32,000 nt of DNA from Candidatus Saccharimonadota bacterium (GCA_963698035.1 OY969114.1:180001-212000), one strand, 5' to 3'. Positions 13,674-28,097 are shown, counted from the first letter of the stretch. Translations and numbers: made by a program. Notes: a model not told the origin generated them from the sequence alone.

Positions 13674-13683
13674 ACTGACACCA

Positions 13684-13833
13684 CTAGGCGGGAAGCCCCC
13701 CTTCCTTCGGCTTCCTGTTTAACAGCCTTACGAATATCTTGGTTAGGAAATTCTGGTGCTCGCCGACCTTCTCTTTTATATTGTAGGCTCGCAGGTATCT
13801 GACCTTCTTGTTTATCCTGACCAAGTATTTCAT
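13684..13833 (-). CDS. Small basic protein (49 aa), below the ORF-track size cutoff
   Basis: The sequence is MKYLVRINKKVRYLRAYNIKEKVGEHQNFLTKIFVRLLNRKPKEGGLPA. Its ATG lies 1 nt after the TAG of 13835..14581. Its stop lies 10 nt before the ATG of 11313..13673, and a GGTG sits in that spacer. It fills the only apparent gap in the operon exactly. Confidence 0.4.
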   Translation of the reverse strand: MKYLVRINKKVRYLRAYNIKEKVGEHQNFLTKIFVRLLNRKPKEGGLPA

Positions 13834-13834
13834 G

Positions 13835-14581: not shown

Positions 14582-14601
14582 AATATCCTATTACAGAGAG
14601 G

Positions 14602-14610
14602 TATTTTATA
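14602..14610 (-). promoter_or_regulatory. TATA box (TATAAAATA on the minus strand) preceding 13835..14581
   Basis: It lies immediately after the stop (14613-14615) of the upstream gene. It is centred 25 nt upstream of GTG 14581, which implies a leaderless or near-leaderless mRNA. Confidence 0.4.
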
Positions 14611-14612
14611 CC

Positions 14613-15056
14613 TTATCTGCCGCGCTGCTCATCGGAGGGCTTCTTCCCCTGCCTGACCGATTCCGAGAGCACCTGCTTCGGGACATCGAGCGGCGGCATG
14701 TAGCTTATGAGCGATAGCAGGTACATCACGACTATCACCCCGAAGCCGAAAAGAAACGAGACCGGGTTCGCTCGCGAGGCAATCACTATGAAGGCTGCGA
14801 AGAGGAATCCTATTACCAGATAGGCGACGAGTTTCGTCTCGTAGCTCCTCCGCCTTTTCATATACTTGGGGAAGCACTCCCTGCACACAACGGAGCGCGT
14901 CGGGTTCTCGTACTTGACGGTATGGCTGTTCAGCCACCTCAGCGCGTTCACCACGCTGTCCGCCTTTATCGTTATGCCTTCCTTCTGCCCGTTACACATT
15001 ATGCACTTCGGTTGCTTTGCCTTCTGATTCTGCTTCTGCTTTGTCTTCATCTTCAT
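14613..15056 (-). CDS. Membrane-anchored zinc-ribbon protein
   Basis: The N-terminus is Lys-rich (MKMKTKQKQNQKAKQPK). A CxxC...CxxC pair follows (CIMCNG ... CRECFPKY). Then come two TM helices (LVAYLVIGFLFAAFIVIA; VSFLFGFGVIVVMYLLSLISY) and a basic tail. Confidence 0.65.
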   Translation of the reverse strand: MKMKTKQKQNQKAKQPKCIMCNGQKEGITIKADSVVNALRWLNSHTVKYENPTRSVVCRECFPKYMKRRRSYETKLVAYLVIGFLFAAFIVIASRANPVSFLFGFGVIVVMYLLSLISYMPPLDVPKQVLSESVRQGKKPSDEQRGR

Positions 15057-15060
15057 CTAA

Positions 15061-15375
15061 TCATCCGAATTCTATAGTTGCGCTGTAGAGTCTGCCTATC
15101 TCAGCGCTTATCTTGCTCTCGTCGGCCATGTTCAGCACCTCGCTTATCAGTATGTCGTTCATGTTCAGCCTCCTGAATATGTTGGTTATCCTATCACGCG
15201 ACATTCCCTCCTTCTCGAGCAGGTTGACAAGCTGCACTATGTTTATGTGCCTGTGCTCCTTCTCCAGGTTGCCGAAGACCTCATTTATGCGGTTCTCGCT
15301 CAGGCCGTAGGCTGCAAGAATCCTCCTGAGCTCGAGCCTGCTAACGGTAAATGTACTAGGATTGGCCATCTCCAC
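15061..15375 (-). CDS. Small helical protein, paralog A of a pair
   Basis: LRRILAAYGLSENRINEVFGNLEKEHRHINIVQLVNLLEKEGMSRDRITNIFRRLNMNDILISEVLNMA aligns position by position with the product of 15356..15616. It contains an internal helix-G-helix duplication (GLSENRINEVFGNL / GMSRDRITNIFRRL). Confidence 0.6.
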   Translation of the reverse strand: MEMANPSTFTVSRLELRRILAAYGLSENRINEVFGNLEKEHRHINIVQLVNLLEKEGMSRDRITNIFRRLNMNDILISEVLNMADESKISAEIGRLYSATIEFG

Positions 15376-15616
15376 CAGCGTATGATATTATCCTTGTAAT
15401 TATCATGTCATCTATGCTCAGGCTCTTCAGGAGGTTTACTATGTTCGTGTTCGGTGCGCCGTTCGACTTCAACTGCCTCACGAAGTCGAGCATTTTCATC
15501 CTCCTGCTGTTCGCGTCGAAGGCGGAGAAGACCGCGCTGGTAGTTCCGCCGAGCATGCCGTACTCTATGAACTTGTTCCTCAGTTCGTCCTTCTCCATCT
15601 GTAGCTCGCTATCCAT
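15356..15616 (-). CDS. Small helical protein, paralog B of a pair
   Basis: LRNKFIEYGMLGGTTSAVFSAFDANSRRMKMLDFVRQLKSNGAPNTNIVNLLKSLSIDDMIITRIISYA aligns with paralog A. It overlaps the ATPase stop by 8 nt and paralog A by 20 nt. Confidence 0.55.
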   Translation of the reverse strand: MDSELQMEKDELRNKFIEYGMLGGTTSAVFSAFDANSRRMKMLDFVRQLKSNGAPNTNIVNLLKSLSIDDMIITRIISYAGGDGQS

Positions 15617-16151
15617 GACCTTTGCGGAGAGCTCGCTCTGCTGTGAGCACGTCCGACATGTCTATCGTGTAGACGTAGAGGGGCTCCTCCCCGATTATCC
15701 TCTCAAGGACGAAGGTCTCTGGGAAGTTCAGCGTGGTGGTGAATTCCATCTTCACTGCGGCCTGCCCGACGCCGAACTTGCCTATCTCGCCCTTTATGAA
15801 GTCGGAGAAGTTGAGCGAGCCCTGCAGGTAATTCATGAACTTCTCGAACTTTATCCTGAATATGAAAGTCGTGCCCACGTTGGAGAATATCGCCTCGTTT
15901 ATGTCCGTAGGGTTCTGCGATGCGACTATGAGCCCGAACTGGTACTTCCTGCCCTCCCTAACTATGGTTATCGCGTCGCTCTTCTCGTCGCTCGCCACCT
16001 TCCAGGCCTCGTCGAGGACGATTATCGCCTTGAGCCCCTTCGTCTCGCTCCAGCCCTCTCCCCTCATCTTCTCCTTCATCGTCTGCAGTATGAACAGCGC
16101 GGCCAGCGCCCTGAACTTCTCATCGGGCAGCCCGGATAGGTCTATGTCCAC
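15609..16151 (-). CDS. VirB4/TrbE/HerA-type ATPase, C-terminal fragment (Walker B onward)
   Basis: It reads (V)DIDLSGLPDEKFRALAALFILQ...KAIIVLDEAWKVASDEKSDAITIVREGRKYQFGLIVASQNPTDI. Walker B IIVLDEAW lies at 16002-16025. The frame is open upstream of the GTG at 16151 (..RLAKSGLVDIDLSG) and joins ORF 16142..16885 by a 1-nt frame change near 16167-16168. Confidence 0.8.
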   Translation of the reverse strand: MDIDLSGLPDEKFRALAALFILQTMKEKMRGEGWSETKGLKAIIVLDEAWKVASDEKSDAITIVREGRKYQFGLIVASQNPTDINEAIFSNVGTTFIFRIKFEKFMNYLQGSLNFSDFIKGEIGKFGVGQAAVKMEFTTTLNFPETFVLERIIGEEPLYVYTIDMSDVLTAERALRKGHG

Positions 16152-16885
16152 GAGGCCGGACTTCGCCAGTCGCCGAGGTCGAGCGTGCTCTTCCTTGCGA
16201 AGTAGTCCTCACCCTCCCGTGCGAACTGCCTGAGCCTGTATATCGCGTTCTCGAGCTCCGCCGGATATTCGTAGGTGCCCTCCTGGAGCTTCTCCTGCAG
16301 GAGCGCTATCACCTCATTGAGCGTGGGCGGCTCCTTAGACGCTACAGGCGTCTCGTAGAGTATGAAGCCTGCGTTGGCGTAGGACTGCTCTATAGCCTCC
16401 TCGGTAATCCTGCGCTGCTCGGGATAGAGCGATATGTCCGTGAGTATGTCCAGTGAGTTCATTATCTGCTTCGTCCTGTCGAGCGGCTTCATTCCCGATA
16501 GGTCAATCATGTTTAGGTAATCGCCCTTCGCGAGCGAGACCACCTTGCCCCTCGTCTGCTTGACCCAGGCCTTGTACTCCCCGGCCCAGTCTATGATTAT
16601 CGCGTTGGTATTCCAAATGTAGCTCGCGCGCCTTATCAGCGTCTTTACGAAGAAGCTCTTTCCCGCGCCGGTTATGCCCACAACCGCTATGTGCGGATTG
16701 GTGATATTTATGAAAGACCAGCTGAACGGAATCTTGAATATGTTAGTGTTGCCTATGTATATTGCCTCGAAGGGATTGCTTATCAGTACGCTTGCCGGCG
16801 GCTCTGGAGGCCTCGAGAGGAAAGCCCTCTTGGCCACCTCGTTGCTCATTATGCTCTGGAACTTTAGCTGTGTCATCGAAACCAC
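16142..16885 (-). CDS. VirB4/TrbE/HerA-type ATPase, N-terminal fragment of the P-loop domain (Walker A)
   Basis: It reads NPHIAVVGITGAGKSFFVKTLIRRASYIWNTNAIIIDWAGEYKAWV. Walker A GITGAGKS lies at 16655-16678, verified on the DNA. The region ...NMIDLSGMKPLD...PTLNEVIALLQ... follows, typical of the VirB4/TraC/DUF87 clade. The likely real start is ATG 16876 (MTQLKF), 26 nt from a TATA centre. Confidence 0.8.
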   Translation of the reverse strand: MVSMTQLKFQSIMSNEVAKRAFLSRPPEPPASVLISNPFEAIYIGNTNIFKIPFSWSFINITNPHIAVVGITGAGKSFFVKTLIRRASYIWNTNAIIIDWAGEYKAWVKQTRGKVVSLAKGDYLNMIDLSGMKPLDRTKQIMNSLDILTDISLYPEQRRITEEAIEQSYANAGFILYETPVASKEPPTLNEVIALLQEKLQEGTYEYPAELENAIYRLRQFAREGEDYFARKSTLDLGDWRSPASWT

Positions 16886-16897
16886 TCAAATCTTAAA

Positions 16898-16906
16898 TTT
16901 TTATAA
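16898..16906 (-). promoter_or_regulatory. TATA box (TTATAAAAA on the minus strand) preceding the ATPase gene
   Basis: It lies directly after the stop (16907-16909) of the upstream gene. It is centred 26 nt upstream of ATG 16876. Confidence 0.4.
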
Positions 16907-17740
16907 CTATCCCTCTACGCTGAACTCCCTTGCAATCTCGTCGTAATTCAGTGGTATGGCGAAGTTGAACCTAAATAGCAGATAGAGTTCCCTCCCTGCA
17001 ATCCTCGAAAGCTGCAGGTTGAGCGAGCTCATCGCGATCTGGAGCTGCTTTATCTGCAGGGATAGCGCGTCGAGCGACGCCTTCTCGCTGACGCCCACAG
17101 CGGTTGTTTCGAAGTACATAATCGATGATATCGGCTTCTCGCCAGCGGATATCCTGTCTATCTTCGCCTGTATTACGCTGATCTTCCTGCGTATGTCGGT
17201 GATGGCTGCCTCGGTGGAGGCCTTCTCGTTCTGCAGGGTCCTTGAGAGCTGGAACTCCTGATAGCTTCTCCTGCCCTCCAGATCATCCCTTATCTTCTGT
17301 GAGTCCCTACCCACGGAGAGGACGTGGAACTTGAACGGGAACGATATGCTCATGACCGCCCTCTCCCAGTTCTCCGGCGCAAGGGTCATCTTTTCCTCGA
17401 CATCCAATTCAATCTCCTCTTCCTTGAAGGAGTACGAGAAGAGATTGCCGGTTACAAAGCCCGTCGCGTAGAAGAGACCGTTGACGTCCTTCACCACAGC
17501 GTCCTGCCTCTTGACTATCGTGTAGTCCTTCGCAGGCTGGAAGGTTATGCCTAAGATACTGGCGAAAAGCGGGAATATGATGAAGTCTGCCCAGTTCAGC
17601 GCGAGTATCAGGCCGAGGGCCAGGAGGGTGAAGAAGAGCGCGGCGAGATCCCAGCCCTTGCCAAAAGAACCTATGCTCGCAAGCACTATGAATATTGCAA
17701 TCAACGAAAGCGCAAGATAAACTATGTCGGTATCATCCAC
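16907..17740 (-). CDS. Membrane protein (2-3 N-terminal TM helices) with a VirB4-N-terminal-domain-like soluble part, paralog 2
   Basis: The TM helices are IVYLALSLIAIFIVLASIG, AALFFTLLALGLILALNWADFIIFPLFASIL. Then comes YTIVKRQDAVVKDVNGLFYATGFVTGNLFSY...MSISFPFKFHVLSVGRD..., a coiled segment, ...MYFETTAVGVSEKASLDALSLQIKQLQIAMSSLNLQLSRIAGRELYLLFRFNF. It has the same architecture as 17740..18582. The GTG start overlaps the upstream stop by 1 nt. Confidence 0.5.
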   Translation of the reverse strand: MDDTDIVYLALSLIAIFIVLASIGSFGKGWDLAALFFTLLALGLILALNWADFIIFPLFASILGITFQPAKDYTIVKRQDAVVKDVNGLFYATGFVTGNLFSYSFKEEEIELDVEEKMTLAPENWERAVMSISFPFKFHVLSVGRDSQKIRDDLEGRRSYQEFQLSRTLQNEKASTEAAITDIRRKISVIQAKIDRISAGEKPISSIMYFETTAVGVSEKASLDALSLQIKQLQIAMSSLNLQLSRIAGRELYLLFRFNFAIPLNYDEIAREFSVEG

Positions 17741-18582
17741 TATACCACCTCCCGCTCTGTCTTCTGTTCTATCTCGGTAGTGATTGTTGAGAACGGAGCC
17801 ATCTGCTCAGGGTCGACGAACTTGAGTATGTCCCTGCCGGTCACTACGCTGGGGGTTACCCCGAAGGTCGTGCTGATTCCGGATATCACCTCGCGTGCCT
17901 TCTGCTGCACCATGCTTACGGCCTCGTACTCCTTCGAGCCCGCCGCTGATATGGCTGCATATGATATGAGCTCTATGGACGGAGCCCTGCTGGAGCTCTC
18001 AAGCACATTCCTCCACATCGCAATCTTGCCCCTTGCTACGTCGAGTGCAGCACCCGGATTCGCGCTCTGCAACAGCTGCGACTCCTCATTCTCGGCGGCG
18101 CTCATCGCGTCCCTGAGCGTCTGTATGTATGAGTCCTTGTTCATCATGTAGAGCTCAGCGGTGAACCTTATCGGGTCCGAGCTTATCCCTACGAGGCGGC
18201 TCACCTGCCTTGAGAAGTCTATCTTCTCTTCGTCGCTCATCTCTGTAGCAGACCTGTATGTCGGTATGCTTATGTAGGCAGTGGCGACGTACTCTCCTTT
18301 CTCCCTCTTGATTATCGAGTCGTCAGAGGAGGAGAGCCAGTAGGGCTCCTCGACGCTGATTATTATATTCCTGCGCCGCTGCTTTAACATCGGTATTATG
18401 AGGTAGGAATAGCGCCTTGAAGAGAACGCAATGACGTCGAAGATTAGGGCTACAATCAGCACCACGAGCTTTGCAGGATACGGCAGTATATATGTCGGAA
18501 GGGTGATTGCGATGCCGATAAGCGCTACCGAGACCGCAAGGAAGCCTAGAAGTATGAATATCTTGGGGTCCATCCAAGCCAC
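17740..18582 (-). CDS. Membrane protein (VirB3-like 2-TM N-terminus) with a VirB4-N-terminal-domain-like soluble part, paralog 1
   Basis: The TM helices are IFILLGFLAVSVALIGIAITL and LVVLIVALIFDVIAF. Then comes IIISVEEPYWLSSSDDSIIKREKGEYVATAYISIPTYRSATEMSDEEKIDFSRQVSRLVGISSDPIRFTAELYMMNKD...ISYAAISAAGSKEYEAVSMVQQKAREVISGISTTFGVTPSVVTGRDILKFVDP. This matches the pattern of VirB4/TrbE N-domains: a 'went to X, got Y' beta segment, a substrate-count helix and a terminal helical segment. That reading is an inference. The start is GTG 18582 or ATG 18573. Confidence 0.5.
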   Translation of the reverse strand: MAWMDPKIFILLGFLAVSVALIGIAITLPTYILPYPAKLVVLIVALIFDVIAFSSRRYSYLIIPMLKQRRRNIIISVEEPYWLSSSDDSIIKREKGEYVATAYISIPTYRSATEMSDEEKIDFSRQVSRLVGISSDPIRFTAELYMMNKDSYIQTLRDAMSAAENEESQLLQSANPGAALDVARGKIAMWRNVLESSSRAPSIELISYAAISAAGSKEYEAVSMVQQKAREVISGISTTFGVTPSVVTGRDILKFVDPEQMAPFSTITTEIEQKTEREVV

Positions 18583-18604: not shown

Positions 18605-18612
18605 TATTTATA
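18605..18612 (-). promoter_or_regulatory. TATA box (TATAAATA on the minus strand) preceding 17740..18582
   Basis: It is the same octamer as the tRNA-Cys promoter. It is centred 26-27 nt upstream of GTG 18582 and lies just after the stop of 18618..19727. Confidence 0.45.
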
Positions 18613-18617
18613 GCTTT

Positions 18618-19727
18618 TCAGACGAGCCCCCTGGCGCTGCTTAGGCTCCTGCTTGCGCCGCCTATGAAGTTGGCAATCTGGGTTATGAAGGCGTAGGTTA
18701 TCGCGATTATCAAGGCGGGATAGAACAGCACAAGCAACCAGAACGAGCTTAGCGCGGATTGCGCTTGGCCCACCGCGAGAACCAGCGGCGATGAGGGGCT
18801 GAGGGCGTTCTGCTCGGCCCCTGTTCCGGCACCCCACCTGTTCAGCTGGGCGGCCGAATTGGCGAGCCCCTGCAGCAGGGTGGGCGAAGTGAAATAGTAG
18901 GCTATCGCGAAAAGCGACGGCATTACAAGATAGAAGCCTATCCCTATCGCTATGAGCATGCCGCCCAGCGCCCTGGTGGGGAGGATCGCCCTGAATACAA
19001 CACCGGGCACCAAAAAGACGGGTATCGCTGTCACCGAGAAGAATATTAGGATGTAGTACTGGCTGTAGAGGGCGGCGGTGCCATCGAGGACTAGCTGGCC
19101 GAGCGTGGTCGCGGGCAGTATGAATAGCAGCTCCAGCGGGTAGGCGGTTACGGAGCCGGGGCCTATGAAGTCGCCGATAAAGTTGCTATAGTCTACGCCG
19201 AGTATCTGGAGCGTTACCGATGGGCTTATATAGAAGCTGTCCACAAGCACGATCTGGTACATCGAGGCGTAGAGCTGCTGTGCCTGCCCTATCGTCGACA
19301 TTATGAGGTTTATCGCTGTTGCGTATGGGTTTATGCCGCCGACCGTTATGGCGGGTATCAGCCCGAACACCACCGCGCATATGAACAGGAAGAAACCCAC
19401 TATTAGCGTGCTTGCTATCGCCTCGTAGAGCTCACCGAGTCCGAAATTCCTTACCTGGTCACTCTTCATCGCCGCCCCAATCATGAAAATCAGGCCAGCG
19501 ATGGTGAAGGCGAGGAGCAGCACTGCGAATACGAAAGGCAGCTCTTGGGACCAGACAGCGTATATCTGCCCATTTATCGGGCAGTACCACGGCGCAGATG
19601 TTGTCAGCTGCTGCGCTAGGGTCGCGGGGAGCAGACCGCACTGACTTGCCGAAGAGGCGCTTGGAATACCTGTGACTAGAAGGACGGCCAGAAGCGATGC
19701 GATTGCGATAGTTTTTATCATCACCAC
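18618..19727 (-). CDS. Polytopic membrane protein, member 6 of 6 of a tandem paralog family (candidate VirB6/TrbL/CedA-like subunit)
   Basis: It has a signal-like N-terminus and then multiple TM helices. The family motifs are LIFMIGAAMKSDQVRNFGLGELYE; FRAILPTRALGGMLIAIGIGFYLVMP; and the C-terminal IANFIGGASRSLSSARGLV. Confidence 0.7.
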   Translation of the reverse strand: MVMIKTIAIASLLAVLLVTGIPSASSASQCGLLPATLAQQLTTSAPWYCPINGQIYAVWSQELPFVFAVLLLAFTIAGLIFMIGAAMKSDQVRNFGLGELYEAIASTLIVGFFLFICAVVFGLIPAITVGGINPYATAINLIMSTIGQAQQLYASMYQIVLVDSFYISPSVTLQILGVDYSNFIGDFIGPGSVTAYPLELLFILPATTLGQLVLDGTAALYSQYYILIFFSVTAIPVFLVPGVVFRAILPTRALGGMLIAIGIGFYLVMPSLFAIAYYFTSPTLLQGLANSAAQLNRWGAGTGAEQNALSPSSPLVLAVGQAQSALSSFWLLVLFYPALIIAITYAFITQIANFIGGASRSLSSARGLV

Positions 19728-19729
19728 AC

Positions 19730-20821
19730 CTAAGCGAGCCCCGTGAGCATCTGCAGGAAGTTTATCTCCTCACCTATAGACTTTGAGAAGTCACGTATAA
19801 AAGCATCAAGTATTATGAAGTTGAGGAATGGTATGAAGGTCAGCCCCCCGATTATGAAGCCGACCTGCTGTATGAATTGTGGGTTGAATATGATGAGGGC
19901 GCCCAATCCGGATCCGAACTGGCCTGAGATGCTGGCGATGAGTATGGTGATGAGCGATTGGAGTAGATTCCCCACCATCTGCACCACATTGAGCCCGCCT
20001 AGCGCAGCTATCTGCACGTTTATGTAGCCGTAGGTTATCGCGACCAGCAGGGGGTATACAAGACCTAGGCCTAGGCCGAAGGCGATCATCGCGCCTCCGA
20101 ACGTCCTGGTTATCCCGAAGCTCCTCGCAACCAGTCCGACCGTGACGAAGAAGGCGAGGAAGAGGAGCGAGCCGGCTATCAGTATAACCTGAAGCTGGTT
20201 GAGCATGAGCATGAAGAATGAGGCACTGAAGGCGACCGATAGTAGCTGCTCCTCCGACGTCGGTAATATGTCGTCTATGCCGAAGCCTACGCCGAGTGCT
20301 GTGGACTGGAACCCCGGGACTGCGACCTTGATGGTTATCCCAGGGCTCACGCCGGCGAAGAAAGATACGAGAAAGAGCGTCTGCACCAATGTGTTTGCGT
20401 TGCCGCTGAATATCCCTATGTCGCATTCGGAGAGTGAGTAAAGCGTTGTGGCACCAGTGCACGGGCCTGGCACCAAGTTGAGCGACTGGAAGGCTCCCTG
20501 CGGACTGAGGAAGAATAGATAGGCGAATGCAGCGAAGATGAGTAGCAGCACAATTGAGATCAGTGCGTCATAAACCTGGCCCAGCGCCCAGCTCCTTGCA
20601 TTGAAGCTCCCGGCGAGGCCGCTGAGCATGTAGACTAACGCGGCTATCACGATTATCAGCATGACCCCAAGGAATGCGATGCCCACCCAGTTGGCTGGGT
20701 TTAGAGGAAGCGTGTTGGAAGGATCCGATGCGGCGTATGCTAGAGGCATTGTCGCAAGCATAAACACTATCATTATCACGGCCGAAATGGCAATCTTGCG
20801 GTTCCTTGTAATGTTCATCAT
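19730..20821 (-). CDS. Polytopic membrane protein, member 5 of 6 of the tandem paralog family
   Basis: The family motifs are LVYMLSGLAGSFNARSWALGQVYD; VARSFGITRTFGGAMIAFGLGLGLVYP; and the C-terminal FSKSIGEEINFLQMLTGLA. The start overlaps the upstream stop (ATGA, 20818-20821). Confidence 0.7.
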   Translation of the reverse strand: MMNITRNRKIAISAVIMIVFMLATMPLAYAASDPSNTLPLNPANWVGIAFLGVMLIIVIAALVYMLSGLAGSFNARSWALGQVYDALISIVLLLIFAAFAYLFFLSPQGAFQSLNLVPGPCTGATTLYSLSECDIGIFSGNANTLVQTLFLVSFFAGVSPGITIKVAVPGFQSTALGVGFGIDDILPTSEEQLLSVAFSASFFMLMLNQLQVILIAGSLLFLAFFVTVGLVARSFGITRTFGGAMIAFGLGLGLVYPLLVAITYGYINVQIAALGGLNVVQMVGNLLQSLITILIASISGQFGSGLGALIIFNPQFIQQVGFIIGGLTFIPFLNFIILDAFIRDFSKSIGEEINFLQMLTGLA

Positions 20822-21930
20822 AACAACTTGTTGAGCGACTGCTTGGAATTTAGGCTGGGGGCGCCGAGGAGGTCTCCCGCGGCTTCCATGAAGTCAAACG
20901 ATATTATGAACGAGAAGAGAACGCAGAAGACTGCGTAGAAGTTCTGCGCGAAAAGCCCCACCAGGAAGAGTAGGAGCTGCGCTGGATCAAAGACTGAGAG
21001 GAACGATGACATAATCGCGAATATCACGCCGAAGTTCGATGCATTCCCCAATATGTCGCTTGAGAAGCTACTGAGCGGGGTGCCTGGCGGGACGTTCGGG
21101 ATCGCAGACGCCGAGGCGGCCGCCAGCATGAAGTGCAGTAGTATCGGGAAGACCATGTAGAACGCTATGAACATGCCCAAAAACGCACCGCCTGCGGCTC
21201 TCGTCCAAGGCAGCGTCCTAAGTATTATGCCGGCGAAGAGGAAGAGCGGCATTATGGCGTAGAATACCCCGAGTATGATGGAGACCGCAATAAGGAGGCC
21301 TGCCAGCCCGCCTAGCGCTGAAAGTAGCATGCTGATAGGGGCATTGGCTGTGGACAGGCCTGCGAAGGGTGAGAAGGTCACTCCGAAATTATAGGGCATT
21401 ATACTTATTTTTAGCGAGCTAATCAGGGCCTGTATGTCCTGTGCTACAGCTAGGTCTATGTAGTAGCTGAATATTTGAACAGCTGGCGTGGTCAGGATGG
21501 AGCAGTCGTTGAAGAAGACGTTGTAATTGTATGCCCCCGCTGCAGATAATATTTTGGGTGCAGTGAACGAGCTTGCGGTGGCGAAGCTGCCTACAAAGAT
21601 GAGGACCACGAGCACGGTCACAAATATCTCCCCGAATTCCTGCTTGCTGAAGTTTACGAGCTTGTTCACCTTGGCGGAGTACCCTATCATGTAGATGAGG
21701 GCGGCTATCAATGCCATTACCAGCAGGATGAGCAGGGATATACCGAGTATGCCGCTCAAGGAAGTGTAGTTGCCGAGCGGCGTCAGTGATGTGAGAGGTA
21801 TCGCTGCGGAGCAGAAACTGCTGGTATAGTCTGCTGTGGGGGATGACACCGCCAGTATCGTGAACATGACTACCGTCAGCACCGCGACCTTTGCGAATCC
21901 TATGTTCATCTTTTTAGACATGTAGATCAT
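20818..21930 (-). CDS. Polytopic membrane protein, member 4 of 6 of the tandem paralog family
   Basis: The family motifs are LIYMIGYSAKVNKLVNFSKQEFGE; ILRTLPWTRAAGGAFLGMFIAFYMVFP; and the C-terminal AAGDLLGAPSLNSKQSLNKLL. There is a 4-nt start/stop overlap with the upstream gene (21927-21930). Confidence 0.7.
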   Translation of the reverse strand: MIYMSKKMNIGFAKVAVLTVVMFTILAVSSPTADYTSSFCSAAIPLTSLTPLGNYTSLSGILGISLLILLVMALIAALIYMIGYSAKVNKLVNFSKQEFGEIFVTVLVVLIFVGSFATASSFTAPKILSAAGAYNYNVFFNDCSILTTPAVQIFSYYIDLAVAQDIQALISSLKISIMPYNFGVTFSPFAGLSTANAPISMLLSALGGLAGLLIAVSIILGVFYAIMPLFLFAGIILRTLPWTRAAGGAFLGMFIAFYMVFPILLHFMLAAASASAIPNVPPGTPLSSFSSDILGNASNFGVIFAIMSSFLSVFDPAQLLLFLVGLFAQNFYAVFCVLFSFIISFDFMEAAGDLLGAPSLNSKQSLNKLL

Positions 21931-23426
21931 ATCAGCCTGCTTAGGCCTGCAAGCGAGGTGTCACCGCCGAGAAGGCTCGAAAGCCCCAGTATGGCAGAGA
22001 GGGTTATAAGTATGTCAAGTATCGGAAGGAGATATCCGCTTACTCCGTATATAGCGTACATGTCGACGTATGCGAAGATAAGGGCGGTCTGCTGCTGGAG
22101 CAGGCTGCCCTGGGAGAGAGAGCCGCACTGATAGGGTAGATATATTACCGGGATGCTGCTCACAAATGAGCCTGTCATCGCACTGAGTACATCATACAAC
22201 GGCGCACCTGGGATCCAGAAGAAGGCTATGTCTGCCGCTTCGGCGTCGAGCGCGCCGGCGGTATTGCCGTTAGGAGGCCAGCAGTAATAATAATTGGCTA
22301 TCGTCTGGACGCTGGGAAAGACGTAGAAGTTGGGGATATACGGCGGGCACTGCGGGGAGCCGCCAGAGGTGTACTGGCTTCCGCAGCCGTTTTCAGGGAG
22401 GTAAGTAAACGAGCTGCTCGGCAGGCCGTTGAATCCGTAAATCGAGCTTATGCTGCCTGGGCCGCTGAAGACATTGCCGAATGTTGCAAGGTTGCCCAGC
22501 CCGTTGCCCAACGTTAGGTACTGTATCGCAAAAATCACAGGGTAGAAGAATACAGCACCTATAGCGACAGCTATGAAGAGACCGCCGAGCTTCCTTGTGA
22601 TGAAATTAGACCTGAGCAGCAGCCCCACGAATATCAAGTAGGGCCACACGAACAGGAATATAGTGATGAACGAGAGTTGTATTATGAAAGAGTAGAGGGA
22701 GCTGGTCAGCAGTATGCCGAGTGATGCCATGGAAGCGAAGAGGAAGGAGAAACCCGCATAGGGCGTATACGAGACAGAGAGGAAGAAAGCTGGCGGCGGC
22801 TCGGGGATGGGGGTTATGCACTGCCAGCTGTTGGGTATGCTATCAATGCAGATGCCGAACGTCGGCGCCAGATGCGCAAGGAATCCTATGAAGCTGTCGA
22901 CAACGAAGAAGCTGTTGATATTGGTGGCCGATTGATATGTGAGGTTCTCAAGCACGACTCCTGATGCGGCGAGCGGGTAATCTATCTCTGAGGTAATATA
23001 GTCCGTGGCCGTCCCACCCACAACCGGGCAGAGCAGGGCGGAGAAGCCGCCGCTACTCAGTACTCCAATAGGGGTCTGCGTACCGCTGGCTGCCTCTGCC
23101 TCTATGCTGGAGCACATGCTGCTTATTGCAGTCTGGCTGAGCAGCTTTGTGTTGTTCAGCGTGGTCTGGAAGAATCCACCAAAGGTGACGAGCGCGAAGG
23201 TTATTATGGCGATAAGTATTGCGGTGCCTATCAGCTGGTAGAACTCTGACCTTGCTGACTGCCTGACTGCGGGGTTGCCGAGCACATAGCCGAACATGTA
23301 CCATATAGTTACTATCGCAGCGTCGACAAGGAGCGCGGCCAGTATGAGCGGGATAAGAGTGAGCTGAGTCTGGGAGAAGCCCGTCACGCTCTGCAGAACA
23401 ATTGCAAACATTGTTGGTGGTATCAT
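21927..23426 (-). CDS. Polytopic membrane protein, member 3 of 6 of the tandem paralog family, with enlarged Cys-containing extracytoplasmic loops
   Basis: The family motifs are IWYMFGYVLGNPAVRQSARSEFYQ; LLRSNFITRKLGGLFIAVAIGAVFFYP; and the C-terminal LSSLLGGDTSLAGLSRLI. Its insertions include ICIDSIPNSWQCITPIPEPPP and ENGCGSQYTSGGSPQCPPYIPN...YYYCWPPNG. Confidence 0.7.
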   Translation of the reverse strand: MIPPTMFAIVLQSVTGFSQTQLTLIPLILAALLVDAAIVTIWYMFGYVLGNPAVRQSARSEFYQLIGTAILIAIITFALVTFGGFFQTTLNNTKLLSQTAISSMCSSIEAEAASGTQTPIGVLSSGGFSALLCPVVGGTATDYITSEIDYPLAASGVVLENLTYQSATNINSFFVVDSFIGFLAHLAPTFGICIDSIPNSWQCITPIPEPPPAFFLSVSYTPYAGFSFLFASMASLGILLTSSLYSFIIQLSFITIFLFVWPYLIFVGLLLRSNFITRKLGGLFIAVAIGAVFFYPVIFAIQYLTLGNGLGNLATFGNVFSGPGSISSIYGFNGLPSSSFTYLPENGCGSQYTSGGSPQCPPYIPNFYVFPSVQTIANYYYCWPPNGNTAGALDAEAADIAFFWIPGAPLYDVLSAMTGSFVSSIPVIYLPYQCGSLSQGSLLQQQTALIFAYVDMYAIYGVSGYLLPILDILITLSAILGLSSLLGGDTSLAGLSRLI

Positions 23427-23433
23427 GAAATCA

Positions 23434-24603
23434 CTATAGGTTGGACCAGAGTGGGGTTGCCCCCTCCAAGCCTGCGTTCAGGGCCTTGTAGAGGCCGGCT
23501 GCAAATGCTACCGTTACGAGTATGTCCATCACGAAGAGGAACACTGCTATGAACATGAACTGGGCCATGGAGTTGATGAGCGAGCTTATCTGCGCGAAGG
23601 CAGTGAACGGGTCGAGCGCGGGCAGGCCAATCGTCAACGCGCTGTTCAGTAGTGAGCCTATAGCCGGCGAGTTTATGAGTATGCCACTACCGAGGTTTAT
23701 CTGCGAGGAGCCCAGGCTTGAGAACTCCTGCGGGGAGAGGGAACCGACGGTGTACGAAGGCAAGTACTGCGCAGCGGGGTTTATCGAGCCGAAGCAGTTC
23801 GACTGGCCGTATATCCAGCTGACTATGCAGGGGCTGAACGAGATTATGAGCGGGTAGATTATGTATGCCGCTATCGCTATCGCGAGCAGAGAATTGGCGG
23901 CCTGACGGAGCCCTGAGCCGGCAGACGCGTAGGCTATAGACCTCATCGCTATGGCGATTGGCAGGACTATCACGAATGCGGTCGCCTGTATCACGGGTAT
24001 TGAAAGCCACTGGATGAATAGCATTCCCAGAGCGGTCACTATTAGGGGGGCGAAAACCGTAAGGAAGAGGCTCCCCAGTATGCCGTAGAATACGCCGAGG
24101 TCGAATCCTAAGGGGAACGAGACCTGCACGACTCCCCCAAGCGTTGGAGTCTTTAATAATCCCCCTATATAGCCAGAGCCAGCGGCGAGTAGGTTGGAGT
24201 CTATAGAATAGTCTATCGAGAGGGCGTATACGTTGGTTAGCAGGCTGAGCCCTGTGTTGAAGGTGAGGTTTCCTATGTAGAAGTCTGCAAAATGGAACGG
24301 GTCCAGACTGCTGCCTGTTACAGATTGGCTTATCACTGTAGAGACGTTGCACGCCCCCGCAGCAACAGCGATAAGCGCTGTTATTATGATGGCCGAGATT
24401 ATCAGCTCAAATATTTCTACCCTCGTTATGCTGCTTATCTTGCCCGCTACATTGGCGGGCATGAACCTTGAAAGCATGTAGACAAAGGCGATTATTGAGA
24501 ATCCTGCGAGTATGATAAGGTAGTTTATTCCGAGCCAGCCCGTGGCGTAGCCGGAGCCGCCGTACAGGGCGCAGGCGTTTATTCCTAATTGTCCTACTGC
24601 CAT
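23434..24603 (-). CDS. Polytopic membrane protein, member 2 of 6 of the tandem paralog family (most divergent)
   Basis: The family motifs are FVYMLSRFMPANVAGKISSITRVEIFE; a degenerate central motif AMRSIAYASAGSGLRQAANSLLAIAIAAYIIYP; and the C-terminal LYKALNAGLEGATPLWSNL. The junction with the upstream gene is TAGTGATATTATG, so the stop overlaps a GTGAT SD-like element. Confidence 0.65.
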   Translation of the reverse strand: MAVGQLGINACALYGGSGYATGWLGINYLIILAGFSIIAFVYMLSRFMPANVAGKISSITRVEIFELIISAIIITALIAVAAGACNVSTVISQSVTGSSLDPFHFADFYIGNLTFNTGLSLLTNVYALSIDYSIDSNLLAAGSGYIGGLLKTPTLGGVVQVSFPLGFDLGVFYGILGSLFLTVFAPLIVTALGMLFIQWLSIPVIQATAFVIVLPIAIAMRSIAYASAGSGLRQAANSLLAIAIAAYIIYPLIISFSPCIVSWIYGQSNCFGSINPAAQYLPSYTVGSLSPQEFSSLGSSQINLGSGILINSPAIGSLLNSALTIGLPALDPFTAFAQISSLINSMAQFMFIAVFLFVMDILVTVAFAAGLYKALNAGLEGATPLWSNL

Positions 24604-24610
24604 AATATCA

Positions 24611-26374
24611 CTACGCCAGCTTGAACTGTCCTAACTGGAGGCGGAGGCTGCCGCCCAGGATCTTTGCGAGCTGGTTAGTAAGTGTCACCACAATCACGAT
24701 GTCGAGCACTAACAGGATGAACTGGATTATTAAGGGCAGTATTTGATACATCACACCGTTGAAGAGGGGGTATATGCTGGTAATGGAGGTTAATCCCGCA
24801 TAGGCGCCCGCCTCGTAAAGCCCTCCGGCATAGAAGAAGTTGCAAAGCACGCCGTCGGCGAGGGCGTTCAAGATTGCATTGTTGAAGTTGAAGCTGCATG
24901 TGGTCGGAATCGAAATTCCACTATTATTAACCACGAAGCTCGTCACAGGCTGGTTGAACGCGACTAGCGTGGTGGGATAGATGAGCGATAGTCCGATAGC
25001 TATCGCTATCAGCGTGCCGCCGATTCCCCTCAGGAACGGCAAGGCCCTAAGTATTATCCCAATTGGAAGGAAGACGAGGAGGCCTATCATGATAATGCTC
25101 TGTAGGAGCACCGCCTGAGCCTGCATCACTAAAAGCACGGGCACTATGACAAAGGTGAGGGAGTCCCTGAGGAAGGAGAGGTTCTTGCCCGCGCCGGTGG
25201 TGTCTATTATGCTACTCTGGAATATATTTTCTTTCGAGCCGTCCTGCAGCGCGGCAAAGAGCAAGCCAGGGATGGGAAGAATTGGTACCGGTATCCATGT
25301 CGACAATACGACGCTCTGTATGAAATTGACTCCGAGGGCGGCCCCTGCAGAGAAGTAGAATGCCTGCGTTGCAAGGAGCACCTCGTTCTGCAGGTATTTG
25401 CTAGCAGCCCCGTAGAGATTCTGCCCCAGGTTCGTTTGGATTATACCGGATCCTGTAGCGGGAGTTGCCCCCGCGAGCGTCGCGGCTATCCCGCTCAATA
25501 TTACCAGGCTGGCGAATATCAGCGCTATTATCATTATGCTCTTGGCGGTCTCCTTCAGCTCATTGATATACCACCTCTTGAGGCTCTGTATGCGGACTAC
25601 CGTGTCGAGCATGTAGCATATTGCGATCAGTGCAAGTGAGAGAAGTATGCCTATCATGGCGATCGGCAGGGCATACGAGATGCAGCTGTCGAAGGTAGTC
25701 GTCGTGCCTGTAATTATGCACGCAATAAGGTTATTACCGGCTGGTACTACTGTCAGGGTCTGCGGGGTGCTGCAGACGCCATTTGTGAGGTCGCATCCTA
25801 CGACAGTATAGCTGCCGGGGGCGGAGCAAGGTGAGGATGTGCCGCATGTAAACGTGGCTGGGCCGCTGGGGTTGCTCGCGACCTTCTGCCCGTTTATAGT
25901 TATATAAGTGCTGTCCTGCACGTTAGGCTGAGACGTTGCGCTTATGCTGTCGCCAGTCCCGGAGGTGGCTTGGCTGTATTGTATGTAAAGAGAGACGCCG
26001 GACAGCAGCTGCTGGCTGTTTATCGTAAGGAATGTGTTGGTGCACTGGTTGCTGGTCAGGTCGCAGCCGATGACGCTGTATACCCCTGGCGGGTAACAGT
26101 TGACCAGGCCATTGACGCAGATGGTGTAGGTGGCGTCGCCGGTTGCGCTTGAGGCGACCGTAAGTCCGTTTATTATTATGTTGGCGCCGTCGGATGTGGG
26201 CGTCGGCACAGTGGTTATCGTGTCCTGTACGCCGCTGTTGATTGGGTTGTAGGTAAATTGGAGGTAGACGGCGCCGGATTGGAGCTGCGCAGACCAGGTC
26301 CTGCCTGCGAAAGATGCCAGCAGCATCAGGGAGAGCACTAAAAGGAAAGCGCCCCGCTGCATTTTCACCCGCAT
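24611..26374 (-). CDS. Polytopic membrane protein, member 1 of 6 of the tandem paralog family, with an N-terminal secreted domain of two Cys4 repeats
   Basis: The signal peptide is MRVKMQRGAFLLVLSLMLLASFAGRTWSA. Two ~85-aa repeats span aa 36-118 and 129-208. The family motifs are ICYMLDTVVRIQSLKRWYINELKE; ILRALPFLRGIGGTLIAIAIGLSLIYP; and the C-terminal LAKILGGSLRLQLGQFKLA. Confidence 0.7.
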   Translation of the reverse strand: MRVKMQRGAFLLVLSLMLLASFAGRTWSAQLQSGAVYLQFTYNPINSGVQDTITTVPTPTSDGANIIINGLTVASSATGDATYTICVNGLVNCYPPGVYSVIGCDLTSNQCTNTFLTINSQQLLSGVSLYIQYSQATSGTGDSISATSQPNVQDSTYITINGQKVASNPSGPATFTCGTSSPCSAPGSYTVVGCDLTNGVCSTPQTLTVVPAGNNLIACIITGTTTTFDSCISYALPIAMIGILLSLALIAICYMLDTVVRIQSLKRWYINELKETAKSIMIIALIFASLVILSGIAATLAGATPATGSGIIQTNLGQNLYGAASKYLQNEVLLATQAFYFSAGAALGVNFIQSVVLSTWIPVPILPIPGLLFAALQDGSKENIFQSSIIDTTGAGKNLSFLRDSLTFVIVPVLLVMQAQAVLLQSIIMIGLLVFLPIGIILRALPFLRGIGGTLIAIAIGLSLIYPTTLVAFNQPVTSFVVNNSGISIPTTCSFNFNNAILNALADGVLCNFFYAGGLYEAGAYAGLTSITSIYPLFNGVMYQILPLIIQFILLVLDIVIVVTLTNQLAKILGGSLRLQLGQFKLA

Positions 26375-26395: not shown

Positions 26396-26403
26396 TATTT
26401 ATA
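26396..26403 (-). promoter_or_regulatory. TATA box (TATAAATA on the minus strand) preceding the six-paralog block
   Basis: It is the same octamer as the tRNA-Cys promoter. It is centred 25-26 nt upstream of ATG 26374 and lies directly after the stop (26407-26409) of the upstream gene. Confidence 0.45.
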
Positions 26404-26406
26404 GTC

Positions 26407-27147
26407 CTATCTCTTCAGGAGCGCGAACCTCTTCATGTAGCATTCGCTCTGCAGCATGACGAGGAAGGGCAGTATGAAGAATGAGTCGAAGACGAGCATC
26501 GCATACTTCGAAATAAGGGCGCCGCTCACCGTTATGAATATTAAGTCAAAGAAGGTCACAAGGACTATGCCGATCGCAAGCCAGAGAAGGAAGTAATCGA
26601 ACCTCTTCATGAAGAAGGAGAGGCTGGCGCGCATGGCGTGGACAATGCCGCGCTCGTCTATCACTATAGAGGATGGCGCATAGAAGAAGAACGGGGCGAA
26701 GACCAGCCCGACAACCGCGGTCGCTATCCCTGCGATCCCATACGAATAGGTGAGGAGGTTTGTGGCTATCACTATGGTGGTGTAGAAGATGAGGACTACG
26801 AATACCCTTCCGGTGTACCTCTCTAGCCCCTCTATCACCTCGTGCCTTATCCTTGCGTTGGTCCTGCTGTGCTTGACTATTACATTTATCGCCACAATCG
26901 CGAAGCTGAGGAAGAGGAGCGAGAAGAGCATGGAGGCGACTATTACGGCGCTGTTCAGCACATTCAGGTTTACGAATACACTGGCGCTCCTTATGAATAT
27001 CCCGCCTATGTCGCTGTACGTTGGAAGTGAAGCGAATATCGGGATGAGGATTGCTATGAAGAATGCAATGGAGAAGAGCAGCAGGAGCCCTAAGCGTTTG
27101 AAGTAGGTGTCAACGGTGTACGCCAGCACATTGGTCATGTAGGTCAA
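26407..27147 (-). CDS. Hypothetical polytopic membrane protein (~6 TM helices)
   Basis: There are six hydrophobic segments (e.g. LGLLLLFSIAFFIAILIPIFASL; AVIVASMLFSLLFLSFAIVAINVIV; FLLWLAIGIVLVTFFDLIFITV) and a cytoplasmic loop KHSRTNARIRHEVIEGLERYTGR. The start is TTG 27147 or ATG 27138. A TATA-like ATATTTATTA lies at 27166-27175 on the minus strand. I recognise no family with confidence. Confidence 0.7.
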   Translation of the reverse strand: MTYMTNVLAYTVDTYFKRLGLLLLFSIAFFIAILIPIFASLPTYSDIGGIFIRSASVFVNLNVLNSAVIVASMLFSLLFLSFAIVAINVIVKHSRTNARIRHEVIEGLERYTGRVFVVLIFYTTIVIATNLLTYSYGIAGIATAVVGLVFAPFFFYAPSSIVIDERGIVHAMRASLSFFMKRFDYFLLWLAIGIVLVTFFDLIFITVSGALISKYAMLVFDSFFILPFLVMLQSECYMKRFALLKR

Positions 27148-27226: not shown

Positions 27227-27604
27227 TTATACGCACACCTTGGCGATGGTGCTTGCGGCCGTCCCGCTTATCAAGCCGAGTATGTATGGTGCGAGGAGCG
27301 CGATTACCACGCCGACTATTCCTCCCATTATCATACCGAGGCCGTAACCTTGGGCTGCTCCCTTTGTGGTGCTAGGCAGCACATTTCCAGCTGCATAGAG
27401 GACGGCACCGGTTATTATGAGCGCCAGTGCTAGAATGAATATTACGGTGTGTACAGTGTTGTATACCAAGCAGATCTGGCTTGTTATGGTGGTTGCTGGG
27501 GTTACTGGTGCCGATACCGTGAATGATGCCAGCACGCCTGTCATCATCAGCAGAGATATTCCGATTAGATACAGTTTTCTGGTGACCTTGTAGCTGTTTA
27601 CCAT
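27227..27604 (-). CDS. VirB2/TrbC/CedA1-like conjugative-type pilin candidate, copy 1 (intact, 125 aa)
   Basis: It has a basic N-terminus and a signal-peptide h-region (MVNSYKVTRKLYLIGISLLMMTGVLASFTVSA|P). The ~90-aa mature part has two hydrophobic helices (VHTVIFILALALIITGAVLYAAG and GLGMIMGGIVGVVIALLAPYILGLI) joined by a short polar loop with one Lys (NVLPSTTKGAAQG). This is the VirB2-type helical-hairpin architecture. A strong SD (AGGAGG) lies 8 nt upstream. There is no class III (type IV pilin) signal. Confidence 0.55.
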   Translation of the reverse strand: MVNSYKVTRKLYLIGISLLMMTGVLASFTVSAPVTPATTITSQICLVYNTVHTVIFILALALIITGAVLYAAGNVLPSTTKGAAQGYGLGMIMGGIVGVVIALLAPYILGLISGTAASTIAKVCV

Positions 27605-27689: not shown

Positions 27690-28097
27690 CTACTTGCAGC
27701 CGTTCCGGTTATCAAGCCGAGTATGTATGGTGCGAGGATTGCAATTATCACGCCGACTATTCCTCCCATTATCATACAGTATGTATGGTGCGAGGATTGC
27801 AATTATCACGCCGACTATTCCTCCCATTATCATACCGAGGCCGTAACCTTGGGCTGCTCCCTTTGTGGTGCTAGGCAGCACATTTCCAGCTGCATAGAGG
27901 ACGGCACCGGTTATTATGAGCGCCAGTGCTAGAATGAATATTACGGTGTGTACAGTGTTGTATACCAAGCAGATCTGGCTTGTTATGGTGGTTGCCGCGG
28001 TTTGCGATACCGTGAATGATGCCAGCACGCCTGTCATCATCAGCAGAGATATTCCGATTAGATACAGTTTTCTGGTGACCTTGTAGCTGTTTACCAT
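27690..28097 (-). CDS. VirB2-like pilin candidate, copy 2; C-terminus frameshifted by an internal 58-bp tandem duplication
   Basis: It matches copy 1 through ...GMIMGGIVGVIIAILAPYIL except at the mature N-terminus (SQTAATT versus SAPVTPATT). It then runs into out-of-frame sequence (YDNGRNSRRDNCNPRTIHTRLDNRNGCK). Removing one 58-bp copy restores ...APYILGLITGTAASSIASVCV with a stop at 27668-27670, which parallels copy 1 (...APYILGLISGTAASTIAKVCV). Confidence 0.55.
   Translation of the reverse strand: MVNSYKVTRKLYLIGISLLMMTGVLASFTVSQTAATTITSQICLVYNTVHTVIFILALALIITGAVLYAAGNVLPSTTKGAAQGYGLGMIMGGIVGVIIAILAPYILYDNGRNSRRDNCNPRTIHTRLDNRNGCK
27730..27845. repeat. Perfect tandem duplication, 2 x 58 bp
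   Basis: AGTATGTATGGTGCGAGGATTGCAATTATCACGCCGACTATTCCTCCCATTATCATAC occurs at 27730-27787 and again at 27788-27845 without a mismatch. Because 58 is not a multiple of 3, it shifts the frame of pilin copy 2. Confidence 0.95.

Follow-up and report, generated by a model that had tools for sequence, protein, structure and literature searches.

The DNA analyzed here is a stretch of 32,000 nucleotides (the window) deposited as Candidatus Saccharimonadota bacterium (GCA_963698035.1 OY969114.1:180001-212000), and our subject is a run of six consecutive genes on its minus strand, A to F in reading order, whose products form one family of polytopic membrane proteins. The six open reading frames (ORFs) are true colinear paralogs that were duplicated anciently. 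Their number and order are fixed across the Micrarchaeota loci that carry them, one topology is predicted for all, and they sit in a cluster with genes for VirB2-like pilins and a VirB4-like ATPase. From this we infer, with reasonable rather than high confidence, an assembly, its stoichiometry, a channel role and a substrate: the six would form a hetero-oligomeric membrane platform or channel of a new system related to the Ced machines and to type IV secretion systems (T4SS). T4SS-derived systems of this kind are already known; what is new is the six-fold paralogous membrane family, and an apparently split VirB4, within one.

A first-pass annotation of the sequence had proposed from motifs visible by eye that the six genes are paralogs of a single polytopic family, and profile-profile comparison with controls bears this out. 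We gathered a group of orthologs for each gene from related genomes and compared the groups profile against profile with hhalign, without predicted secondary structure. All 15 pairs aligned over 208-334 colinear columns, with scores of 81-152, probabilities of 96.8-99.2% and E-values of 3e-10 to 2e-19. These values lie far beyond those of the controls, in which reversed targets scored 16-34 (probability at most 13%), an unrelated polytopic protein from the same genomes scored 13-29 (at most 6%), and VirB6 profiles reached a probability of at most 1%. One might argue that hydrophobic, low-complexity proteins resemble one another through composition and not through true paralogy, and with single sequences BLASTP and phmmer do find marginal similarity among the six and leave the 389-aa protein B undetected. 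We regard this explanation as practically impossible. The real profile scores are 3-8 times those of the reversed and unrelated-membrane controls, the alignments are colinear with invariant polar residues, and a family profile searched against 1.84 billion representatives recovers 3152 clusters (50% identity), 574 of them at E ≤1e-30. When ortholog groups are compared by hhalign, B itself matches A, C, D, E and F at 96.8-98.9%.

The gene models behind this comparison are sound: six ORFs encoding 587, 389, 499, 370, 363 and 369 aa occupy positions 18618-26374 of the minus strand, as first annotated. The three motifs said to be shared by the six also stand in a MAFFT alignment, where they are colinear: a YM-x-G...E-x2-E block after the first long transmembrane (TM) helix, an R-x5-R-x2-GG...YP block in which R443, R449 and P467 (numbering of the 587-aa protein A) are invariant in all six, and a G-G tail at the C-terminus. 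The junctions read from the sequence just as the annotation had described them, with ATGA overlaps, gaps of 2-7 nt and two instances of TAGTGAT(n)ATG. A to B and B to C are the TAG-TGAT(n)-ATG junctions, with gaps of 7 nt; C overlaps D in an ATGA at 21927-21930, and D overlaps E in another at 20818-20821. The gap between E and F is 2 nt with a GTG start for F and 8 nt with an ATG start, the latter being the start used by a database protein of 367 aa (P0028). This tight packing is kept in two relatives, L002 and L006, with gaps of at most 12 nt or overlaps.

The arrangement is also old. We scanned the neighboring ATPase against one genome per species, which gave 177 relatives, and took loci from the best 80 of these 177; across those 80 the ATPase is 62-79% identical, nearly all are Micrarchaeota, and the complete genome of the cultivated Candidatus Micrarchaeum sp. 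A_DKE is among the loci with the cluster. In 53 loci (49 non-redundant) the set is complete and runs A-B-C-D-E-F, with each ORF finding its best match in the gene at the same position. Contig ends cut the series short in another 17 loci, and what is left of it there is as expected. Neither order nor number deviates in any of the 53 complete and 17 partial loci. A fixed order with positional best matches indicates a duplication older than the sampled Micrarchaeota radiation. Conserved residues differ from one paralog group to the next, down to the Cys pairs of the outside loops, and the six copies are therefore specialized rather than redundant. A homolog search with the six-protein alignment gave A-type orthologs only, and F, used as the query for a second search, gave 179 database orthologs. 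The relatives in databases are unannotated 'hypothetical' proteins of Candidatus Micrarchaeota/Micrarchaeia metagenome-assembled genomes (MAGs), with one 'multipass membrane protein' from Candidatus Mancarchaeum. The taxonomy of the profile search rests on the best 150 of the 3152 clusters, and among the matches listed in these searches the family is found only in Micrarchaeota (DPANN) and in MAGs clustering with them. Several contigs with the cluster are deposited under other names, namely Candidatus Acidoferrum, Acidiferrales, Methanothrix, Baltobacteraceae and Marsarchaeota (L013, L015, L040, P0107, L037, L049, L054 and L082). Their ATPases are 63-74% identical to the query alignment of Micrarchaeota-type sequences, and because this falls inside the Micrarchaeota identity range, the contigs named Acidoferrum, Methanothrix, Marsarchaeota and so on are probably mis-binned or mislabelled.

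What kind of membrane protein is this? Hydropathy, the positive-inside pattern and the helices of AlphaFold2 (AF2) models together predict a core with the N-terminus outside, five TM helices and the C-terminus inside, in which the short loops and the tail bear K/R and the long loops are almost without them. The N-terminal half consists of TM1, a short basic cytoplasmic loop, TM2 beginning with E-x2-E, and an outside loop of about 60-130 aa that is nearly K/R-free; the C-terminal half comprises TM3, a cytoplasmic loop with R-x5-R-x2-GG, then TM4 and, after another outside loop, TM5 followed by a short tail that is basic and amphipathic. The core includes an optional signal peptide, which A, D, E and F are predicted to have. 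F as modeled by AF2 (predicted local distance difference test score, pLDDT, 86; predicted TM-score, pTM, 0.76) has helices of 31-53 residues, the longest of which exceed the span of a bilayer. In the model of A, for which the alignment was shallow and mixed, the core has a pLDDT of 80-90 and the N-terminal domain one below 50. With the TM cores placed by hydropathy and charge, the long helices would reach past them on the extracellular side. Conservation in the F group is highest in TM2, TM3, the second cytoplasmic loop and TM4 (0.71-0.76) and lowest in the outside loops (0.44-0.46).

The outside loops are also where the proteins vary in size, and the ortholog length ranges confirm the lineage-specific extracytoplasmic insertions that had been proposed: 376-587 aa for A, 367-694 for C, 342-645 for D, 300-843 for E and 299-1237 for F, the lower ends including orthologs cut by contig ends. 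The E ortholog of 843 aa (L004:15013-17544) has faint Ig, PKD and SprB matches, and other large orthologs are an F of 1237 aa (L008:4569-8282), a D of 645 aa (L068:4115-6052) and a C of 694 aa (L069:2778-4862). In the window it is A that is extended: residues ~29-215 form two Cys-rich repeats of ~90 aa (local BLOSUM62 score 138), modeled by AF2 at low confidence with beta strands and present in close relatives only (P0002, L012). The paralog that bears the big ectodomain varies from lineage to lineage. Given such loops, the six might not be a channel at all; they could be membrane-anchored presenters (adhesins or host-recognition proteins) or stalk or tip parts like VirB5 and minor pilins, co-regulated with a pilus, and it would be the variable loops that carry out the function. 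Extracellular loops that vary and take very large insertions, such as those in E of 843 aa, in F of 1237 aa and the 200-aa domain of A, would suit that role, as would the resemblance of the TM1-TM2 hairpin of B to the pilin profile (84%), and in Anaplasma the extensions of VirB6-3 and VirB6-4 are surface exposed (PMC7648143). However, the TM helices and cytoplasmic loops, with their invariant R-x5-R and E-x2-E, are the most conserved parts, which points to a conserved intracellular or membrane function, and most orthologs have no large ectodomain (median lengths 363-502 aa). We consider it unlikely that the six are surface presenters in place of a channel, and the two roles are not mutually exclusive.

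The case for a channel or platform draws on the genes around the six, which belong to a chromosomal block of ~17 kb on one strand that is conserved in 68-84 loci (Table 1). The context of a secretion system, at which the first-pass annotation could only hint, is made much firmer at three points. First, orthologs of the two pilin paralogs match the TrbC/VirB2 and T4SS_pilin families: 7 of 10 do so, below the Pfam threshold (best E 1e-4 for PF18895 T4SS_pilin and 2e-4 for PF04956 TrbC), and the window copy of paralog 1 has no Pfam match. Second, the ATPase passes the Pfam cut-offs for DUF87 (58 bits) and AAA_10 (30-32 bits), and it matches conju_CD1110, CedB, CedD and HerA in NCBIfam and HerA and VirB4 (4ag5) in the PDB. 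Third, among 29 orthologs of the 277-aa protein, 13 match NCBIfam CedB at positions ~125-208 (best E 2e-4) and three match VirB4_plasma (best E 2e-5). The 277-aa and 280-aa proteins are paralogs of each other (hhalign probability 95%, E 3e-8, 253 columns), and the VirB4 homologue appears to be split into these two membrane-anchored N-domain proteins and the ATPase. Pilin, VirB4-like ATPase and polytopic protein, on a chromosome and with no relaxase, make up by their predicted homologies the context of a T4SS-derived system of the Ced/Ted kind, and position together with predicted topology supports the six as the likely occupants of its VirB6/CedA slot.

VirB6 has an outside N-terminus, five TM helices, an inside C-terminus and a large extracytoplasmic loop. 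The topology predicted for the six is of this TrbL/VirB6 type, with an extracytoplasmic N-terminus, about five TM helices, a large outside loop and a cytoplasmic C-terminus, and they are encoded with VirB4-type ATPase and VirB2-type pilin genes. As in Ced, the cluster is chromosomal, has a CedB-like ATPase and a VirB2-like pilin, and is without a relaxase or type IV coupling protein (T4CP). A published account gives VirB6 'four to five TMDs' (TMD, transmembrane domain; PMC7648143). Of the VirB6/TrbL/CedA-like candidate role suggested in the first-pass annotation, the part that rests on position, context and predicted topology stands; homology to VirB6/TrbL in sequence or profile, sought with Pfam, NCBIfam and hhalign, does not.

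The comparisons behind that negative result, and several other observations, weigh against a VirB6-like platform. Neither the six proteins nor 48 family members match PF04610 (TrbL/VirB6) in Pfam at E ≤1, and no significant match came from Pfam, NCBIfam and PHROG scans of the six or from Pfam and NCBIfam scans of the 48, among which there is also no match to a Ced-related NCBIfam model (the presence of a CedA model in NCBIfam was not verified). By hhalign, the ortholog-group profiles and a merged profile of 333 sequences reach a probability of at most 1% against both a TrwI-like profile (89 sequences) and a broad MPF_T VirB6 profile (29 sequences). The broad alignment was assembled from 13 plasmid VirB6 proteins (12 extra plasmid loci), and the comparison set was proteobacterial only, without Gram-positive and Patescibacteria VirB6 sequences and without secondary-structure scoring. 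The family profile has 0 matches at E ≤10 among PDB sequences, TrwI included. In Foldseek the model of A finds no VirB6 in the PDB, and all Foldseek matches lie above E 1e-3. The solved VirB6 of plasmid R388 (PDB 7O3V) reportedly forms a pentamer, onto which six subunits do not map simply. Linkage of the six to the ATPase is not absolute, because in one distant lineage, L088 (GCA_964532715.1), the six are followed by a gene of the ornithine carbamoyltransferase family (OTCace) and other unrelated genes, and the ATPase module does not come after them. Finally, in the window the ATPase gene itself is broken by a 1-nt deletion and a 1-nt insertion ~530 nt apart. A second assembly of this organism (L001:10348-11868) has the gene intact, at 506 aa, and is 99.7% identical to the window over 12.6 kb. 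All 35 reported mismatches fall in the ATPase-gene segment; from this pattern a consensus mixed from strains or wrongly polished, or else a recombination tract, seems likelier than simple decay.

Homology of the six to VirB6, TrbL or CedA is not shown by these sequence comparisons, and two further results bear on it. When the model of F is compared with the PDB by Foldseek, TrwI chains rank 5, 6, 14 and 16 (E 0.2-0.4, probability 0.69-0.89); their TM-scores against F (TMq 0.28-0.33, TMt 0.36-0.41) are the highest among the PDB matches and are below 0.5. Against BFVD, one model has a TrbL-annotated viral protein as its 9th match (E 0.17). We take the resemblance of the modeled F to the TrwI/VirB6 fold as a weak hint, one that the model of A does not reproduce. 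Tweety-homolog (TTYH) channels recur in these comparisons at TM-scores of 0.14-0.24, and we dismissed them as noise from membrane proteins with long helices. The second result comes from the pilin profile, which among the six matches B only (probability 84%, E 8e-6), pilin positions 56-105 aligning with B 28-77, that is, TM1-TM2. The best alignments with D, E and F also fall in the TM1-TM2 region and are not significant, and those with A and C lie elsewhere. In Ced, CedA's N-terminal region is reported to be homologous to its cognate pilin CedA1 (PMC9905601).

It is also possible that the six are an autonomous transporter or other complex, such as a lipid or nutrient permease or an S-layer anchor, that merely neighbors the VirB4 and pilin genes. 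The six have their own promoter-like element and would form a separate transcription unit, in L088 the ATPase genes do not come after them, and homology to any T4SS component is undetected. Yet the pilins upstream and the ATPase module downstream are kept in every Micrarchaeota locus examined, and the block contains no other energizing component. Pfam, NCBIfam and PHROG give no significant match, and in Pfam and NCBIfam no transporter or permease matches at E ≤1. Independence of this sort seems quite improbable to us. Two specific alternatives, a pilus platform of the GspF/FlaJ type and ABC-type permeases, were set aside: neither gives a family match, and the sole ATPase of the block is of the HerA/VirB4 type, not GspE or ABC. 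In L088 the six stand in tandem at 9053-16996; those in positions 1, 2, 3 and 6 find their best matches in A, B, C and F. Upstream of them, in divergent orientation, lie genes for two unannotated proteins of very large size (962 and 1842 aa).

Could the cluster instead be the mating-pair-formation module of an integrated conjugative element (ICE), with the six serving plasmid or ICE transfer? An AAA_10/VirB4-like ATPase together with VirB2-like pilins is a hallmark of conjugation systems, and among plasmid proteins the ATPase comes closest, with 22-27% identity, to TraC and VirB4-like proteins from conjugative plasmids of Gram-positive bacteria. However, the 32-kb window shows no gene for a relaxase, a coupling protein (T4CP/VirD4), an integrase or replication, and none of the relatives lies on an IMG/VR viral contig or a PLSDB plasmid. 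The flanking genes are housekeeping genes (SecF, NMD3, an exosortase-family protein, UDG/NUDIX and threonyl-tRNA synthetase, ThrRS), the adjacency of ThrRS being common to L006 and L089 out of four relatives that have upstream context. The block is uniform in GC content, and the ATPase is 62-79% identical across 80 species-level genomes. The block is chromosomal and not mobile, and we think a conjugative element very improbable.

A chromosomal Ced/T4SS-like system is thus the reading we prefer, and it can be set beside four known groups. Ced (CedA/CedA1/CedA2/CedB) and Ted (TedA/TedB/TedC) are archaeal DNA-import machines derived from T4SS (PMC9905601); in Thermoproteota they are chromosomal, archaeal and without a relaxase (PMC9905601), as here. 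Like the present cluster, they bring polytopic membrane proteins together with a VirB2-like pilin and a VirB4/HerA-type ATPase. The archaeal matches of the cluster's 277-aa protein and its ATPase are to the CedB and CedD models, and the components are without simple sequence similarity to other systems, just as Ced is when compared with Ted. The differences are that Ced and Ted have a single VirB6-like protein of ~7 TM helices whereas the present cluster has six 5-TM paralogs in fixed order; that its VirB4 homologue is apparently split, its pilin comes as two paralogs, and further surface and coiled-coil proteins are conserved in it; and that its host lineage is DPANN Micrarchaeota. With VirB6/TrbL itself (TrwI of R388, PDB 7O3V and 8RT9), the six share the predicted topology, a conservation that is strongest in the central helices and in the cytoplasmic loop from TM3 to TM4, and a gene position between pilin and VirB4 genes; their signature motifs, R-x5-R-x2-GG and E-x2-E, set them apart.

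The closest precedent for a multiplied VirB6 is the rvh T4SS of Rickettsiales, in which tandem virB6 paralogs (4 in Anaplasmataceae, 5 in Rickettsiaceae) lie beside virB3-virB4, most of their conservation being in the TMD3-4 cytoplasmic loop and the TM helices at the center (PMC7648143). The likeness extends to diverged tandem paralogs within one operon, lineage-wide synteny in a host-dependent, genome-reduced lineage, variable extensions exposed at the surface and duplicated pilin genes. In contrast, the Rickettsiales proteins are bona fide TrbL/VirB6-domain proteins of diderm bacteria with a full VirB8-11/D4 set, and here a distinct family, six in number, occurs in a monoderm S-layer archaeon that lacks the other VirB components. 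In ecology the closest analogy is with Patescibacteria (candidate phyla radiation, CPR), which carry a conserved chromosomal minimal T4SS with VirB4, a VirB3-like protein, VirB6 and arrays of divergent VirB2-like pilins matching PF18895 (PMC12102498). These ultra-small episymbionts mostly lack relaxases, and the system is reported to be essential for epibiotic growth in one cultivated species (PMC12102498). Unlike the present cluster, it is bacterial and has a single recognizable VirB6 in most genomes, a six-fold paralog set not being described there, and the Micrarchaeota pilins match the same Pfam pilin model only below threshold.

How might such a system work? In the mechanism that we think most likely, a single operon would yield all six proteins, and these would build one hetero-oligomeric platform or channel within the cytoplasmic membrane, the functional counterpart of VirB6, CedA or TedA. 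The invariant acidic and basic cytoplasmic motifs and the basic tails could dock the ATPase module, probably via the two membrane-anchored VirB4-N-like proteins, while the extracellular helical bundle might nucleate or support a VirB2-like pilin filament through the S-layer. The variable loops would then face the host cell, and the substrate could be DNA, as in Ced and Ted, or other host-derived cargo. In a stronger form of this model, which we find rather doubtful, the cluster would be a lineage-wide domesticated T4SS/Ced-like nanomachine whose core is an obligate 1:1 hetero-hexamer matching the six-fold HerA/VirB4-type ATPase and through which these genome-reduced ectosymbionts take DNA, nucleotides or other macromolecules from Thermoplasmatales hosts. 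Since the count of six is constant, pairing a 1:1 hetero-hexamer with a hexameric ATPase has its appeal, and it would parallel the MCM2-7 and Rpt1-6 rings. On that hetero-hexamer reading the six may be a family that evolved independently of VirB6 for the same role.

The cluster is a concrete and testable candidate for the apparatus by which Micrarchaeota, as DPANN archaea, would physically exchange material with their hosts. It is found in at least 80 species-level genomes, including that of the cultivated Candidatus Micrarchaeum sp. A_DKE, and is built from T4SS-type parts, like the Ced and Ted DNA importers and the T4SS reported to be essential in Patescibacteria. Six diverged paralogs in fixed number, duplicated VirB4-N-domain proteins and duplicated pilins have no described counterpart among archaeal systems; together these three novel features resemble the unexplained VirB6 paralog arrays of Rickettsiales, and a structure of the complex could also show why host-dependent lineages multiply a VirB6-type component. 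Naming the family (3152 clusters, unannotated among the matches listed) would annotate thousands of 'hypothetical proteins'. We found no published description of the cluster or family in a literature search of incomplete coverage (type IV secretion, VirB4 or CedB in Micrarchaeota/DPANN, and papers on M. harzensis); secretion, pili and VirB all go unmentioned in the paper that describes the cultivated Micrarchaeum.

Signals in the window are consistent with production of the six as a unit. The TATA-like pattern YTATAAAWA occurs 3 times in 32 kb, against 0.73 expected, and all three occurrences are on the minus strand in intergenic spacers of the cluster, each lying ~26 nt upstream of a gene start: that of A, that of the 280-aa gene or that of the ATPase gene. 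In archaea the established promoter layout places such a box at this distance from a leaderless start, and because the boxes fit that layout they suggest three leaderless transcription units, one of which would consist of the six genes. Within the unit, the TAGTGAT spacers contain GTGAT, and other junctions carry GGTG or GGAGGTG. Elements of the GGTG/GTGAT type would pair with the usual 3' end of archaeal 16S rRNA, as a matter of general layout, the 16S gene of this organism lying outside the window. Tight spacing, overlapping stop and start codons and these Shine-Dalgarno-like GTGAT/GGTG elements suggest coupled translation of the six. Equimolar translation and a hetero-oligomer, or hexamer, as proposed in the first-pass annotation, would draw indirect support only from the finding of exactly six 1:1 orthologs, always in one order, in every complete region. 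A scan for bacterial sigma-70 promoters and terminators was set aside as uninformative for an archaeon. In L089 an IS605-type OrfB/TnpB (Cas12f-like) gene (8626-9855, minus strand) is inserted between a 243-aa membrane-protein gene and paralog A, in the spacer where the window has its TATA-like box.

Table 1. Genes and TATA-like boxes of the conserved block in the window, in reading order.
Feature	Position	Strand	Description
VirB2/TrbC-like pilin paralog 1	27690..28097	minus	135 aa; signal peptide, two hydrophobic helices with a short basic loop between them
VirB2/TrbC-like pilin paralog 2	27227..27604	minus	125 aa; 88% identical to paralog 1
246-aa polytopic membrane protein	26407..27147	minus	immediately upstream of the six; in 42 loci, on the same strand
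TATA-like box CTATAAATA	26396..26404	minus	~26 nt upstream of the ATG of gene A
Paralog A	24611..26374	minus	587 aa; signal peptide, ~200-aa extracellular Cys-rich domain (two ~90-aa repeats), 5-TM core
Paralog B	23434..24603	minus	389 aa; most divergent member; without signal peptide
Paralog C	21927..23426	minus	499 aa; two long extracellular loops with six conserved Cys
Paralog D	20818..21930	minus	370 aa; ATGA overlaps with C and E
Paralog E	19730..20821	minus	363 aa
Paralog F	18618..19727	minus	369 aa from GTG start, probably 367 aa from ATG at 19721; best-conserved member
Second TATA-like box CTATAAATA	18605..18613	minus	upstream of the 280-aa gene
280-aa protein	17740..18582	minus	two N-terminal TM helices and a ~220-aa soluble domain; 82 loci
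277-aa protein	16907..17740	minus	two TM helices; soluble domain similar to the N-terminal region of CedB/VirB4
Third TATA-like box TTATAAAAA	16898..16906	minus	upstream of the ATPase gene
HerA/VirB4-superfamily ATPase	15356..16885	minus	three ORFs: 16142-16885, 15609-16151, 15356-15616
104-aa soluble protein	15061..15375	minus	84 loci, same strand; no significant family
147-aa protein	14613..15056	minus	basic N-terminal part and two TM helices; 79 loci
248-aa coiled-coil protein	13835..14581	minus	71 loci; weak C-terminal winged-helix-like matches (ZapB, TrmB, PCI, FeoC)
786-aa surface protein	11313..13673	minus	signal/TM segment, ~510-aa ectodomain, TM helix, 214-aa cytoplasmic domain; 68 loci

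Some of the remaining genes of the block deserve comment. The two pilin paralogs differ in their C-terminal tails; in their orthologs the Cys that directly follows the signal peptide is kept in 90% or more, and a second one usually stands within a few residues of the C-terminus, and one may speculate by analogy that a disulfide joins the two ends, reminiscent of the cyclised TrbC/VirB2 pilins. The 246-aa protein has no Pfam match and is unrelated to the six by hhalign. No Pfam match was found for the 786-aa protein either, whose ectodomain has many N-x-S/T sequons and whose cytoplasmic domain is without a family match; from this architecture it may be an adhesin or receptor of the system. A 244-aa ORF that runs antisense through the ATPase gene (15405-16139, plus strand) is almost certainly a spurious shadow ORF of a GC-rich coding region. 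In the flanks lies a gene that we take, from its translation read by eye, to encode topoisomerase VI B. The exosortase-family protein of the flank (511 aa, 5838-7373, plus strand; Exosortase_EpsH PF09721, E 3e-21) is archaeosortase-like and is encoded ~4 kb from the last gene of the cluster.

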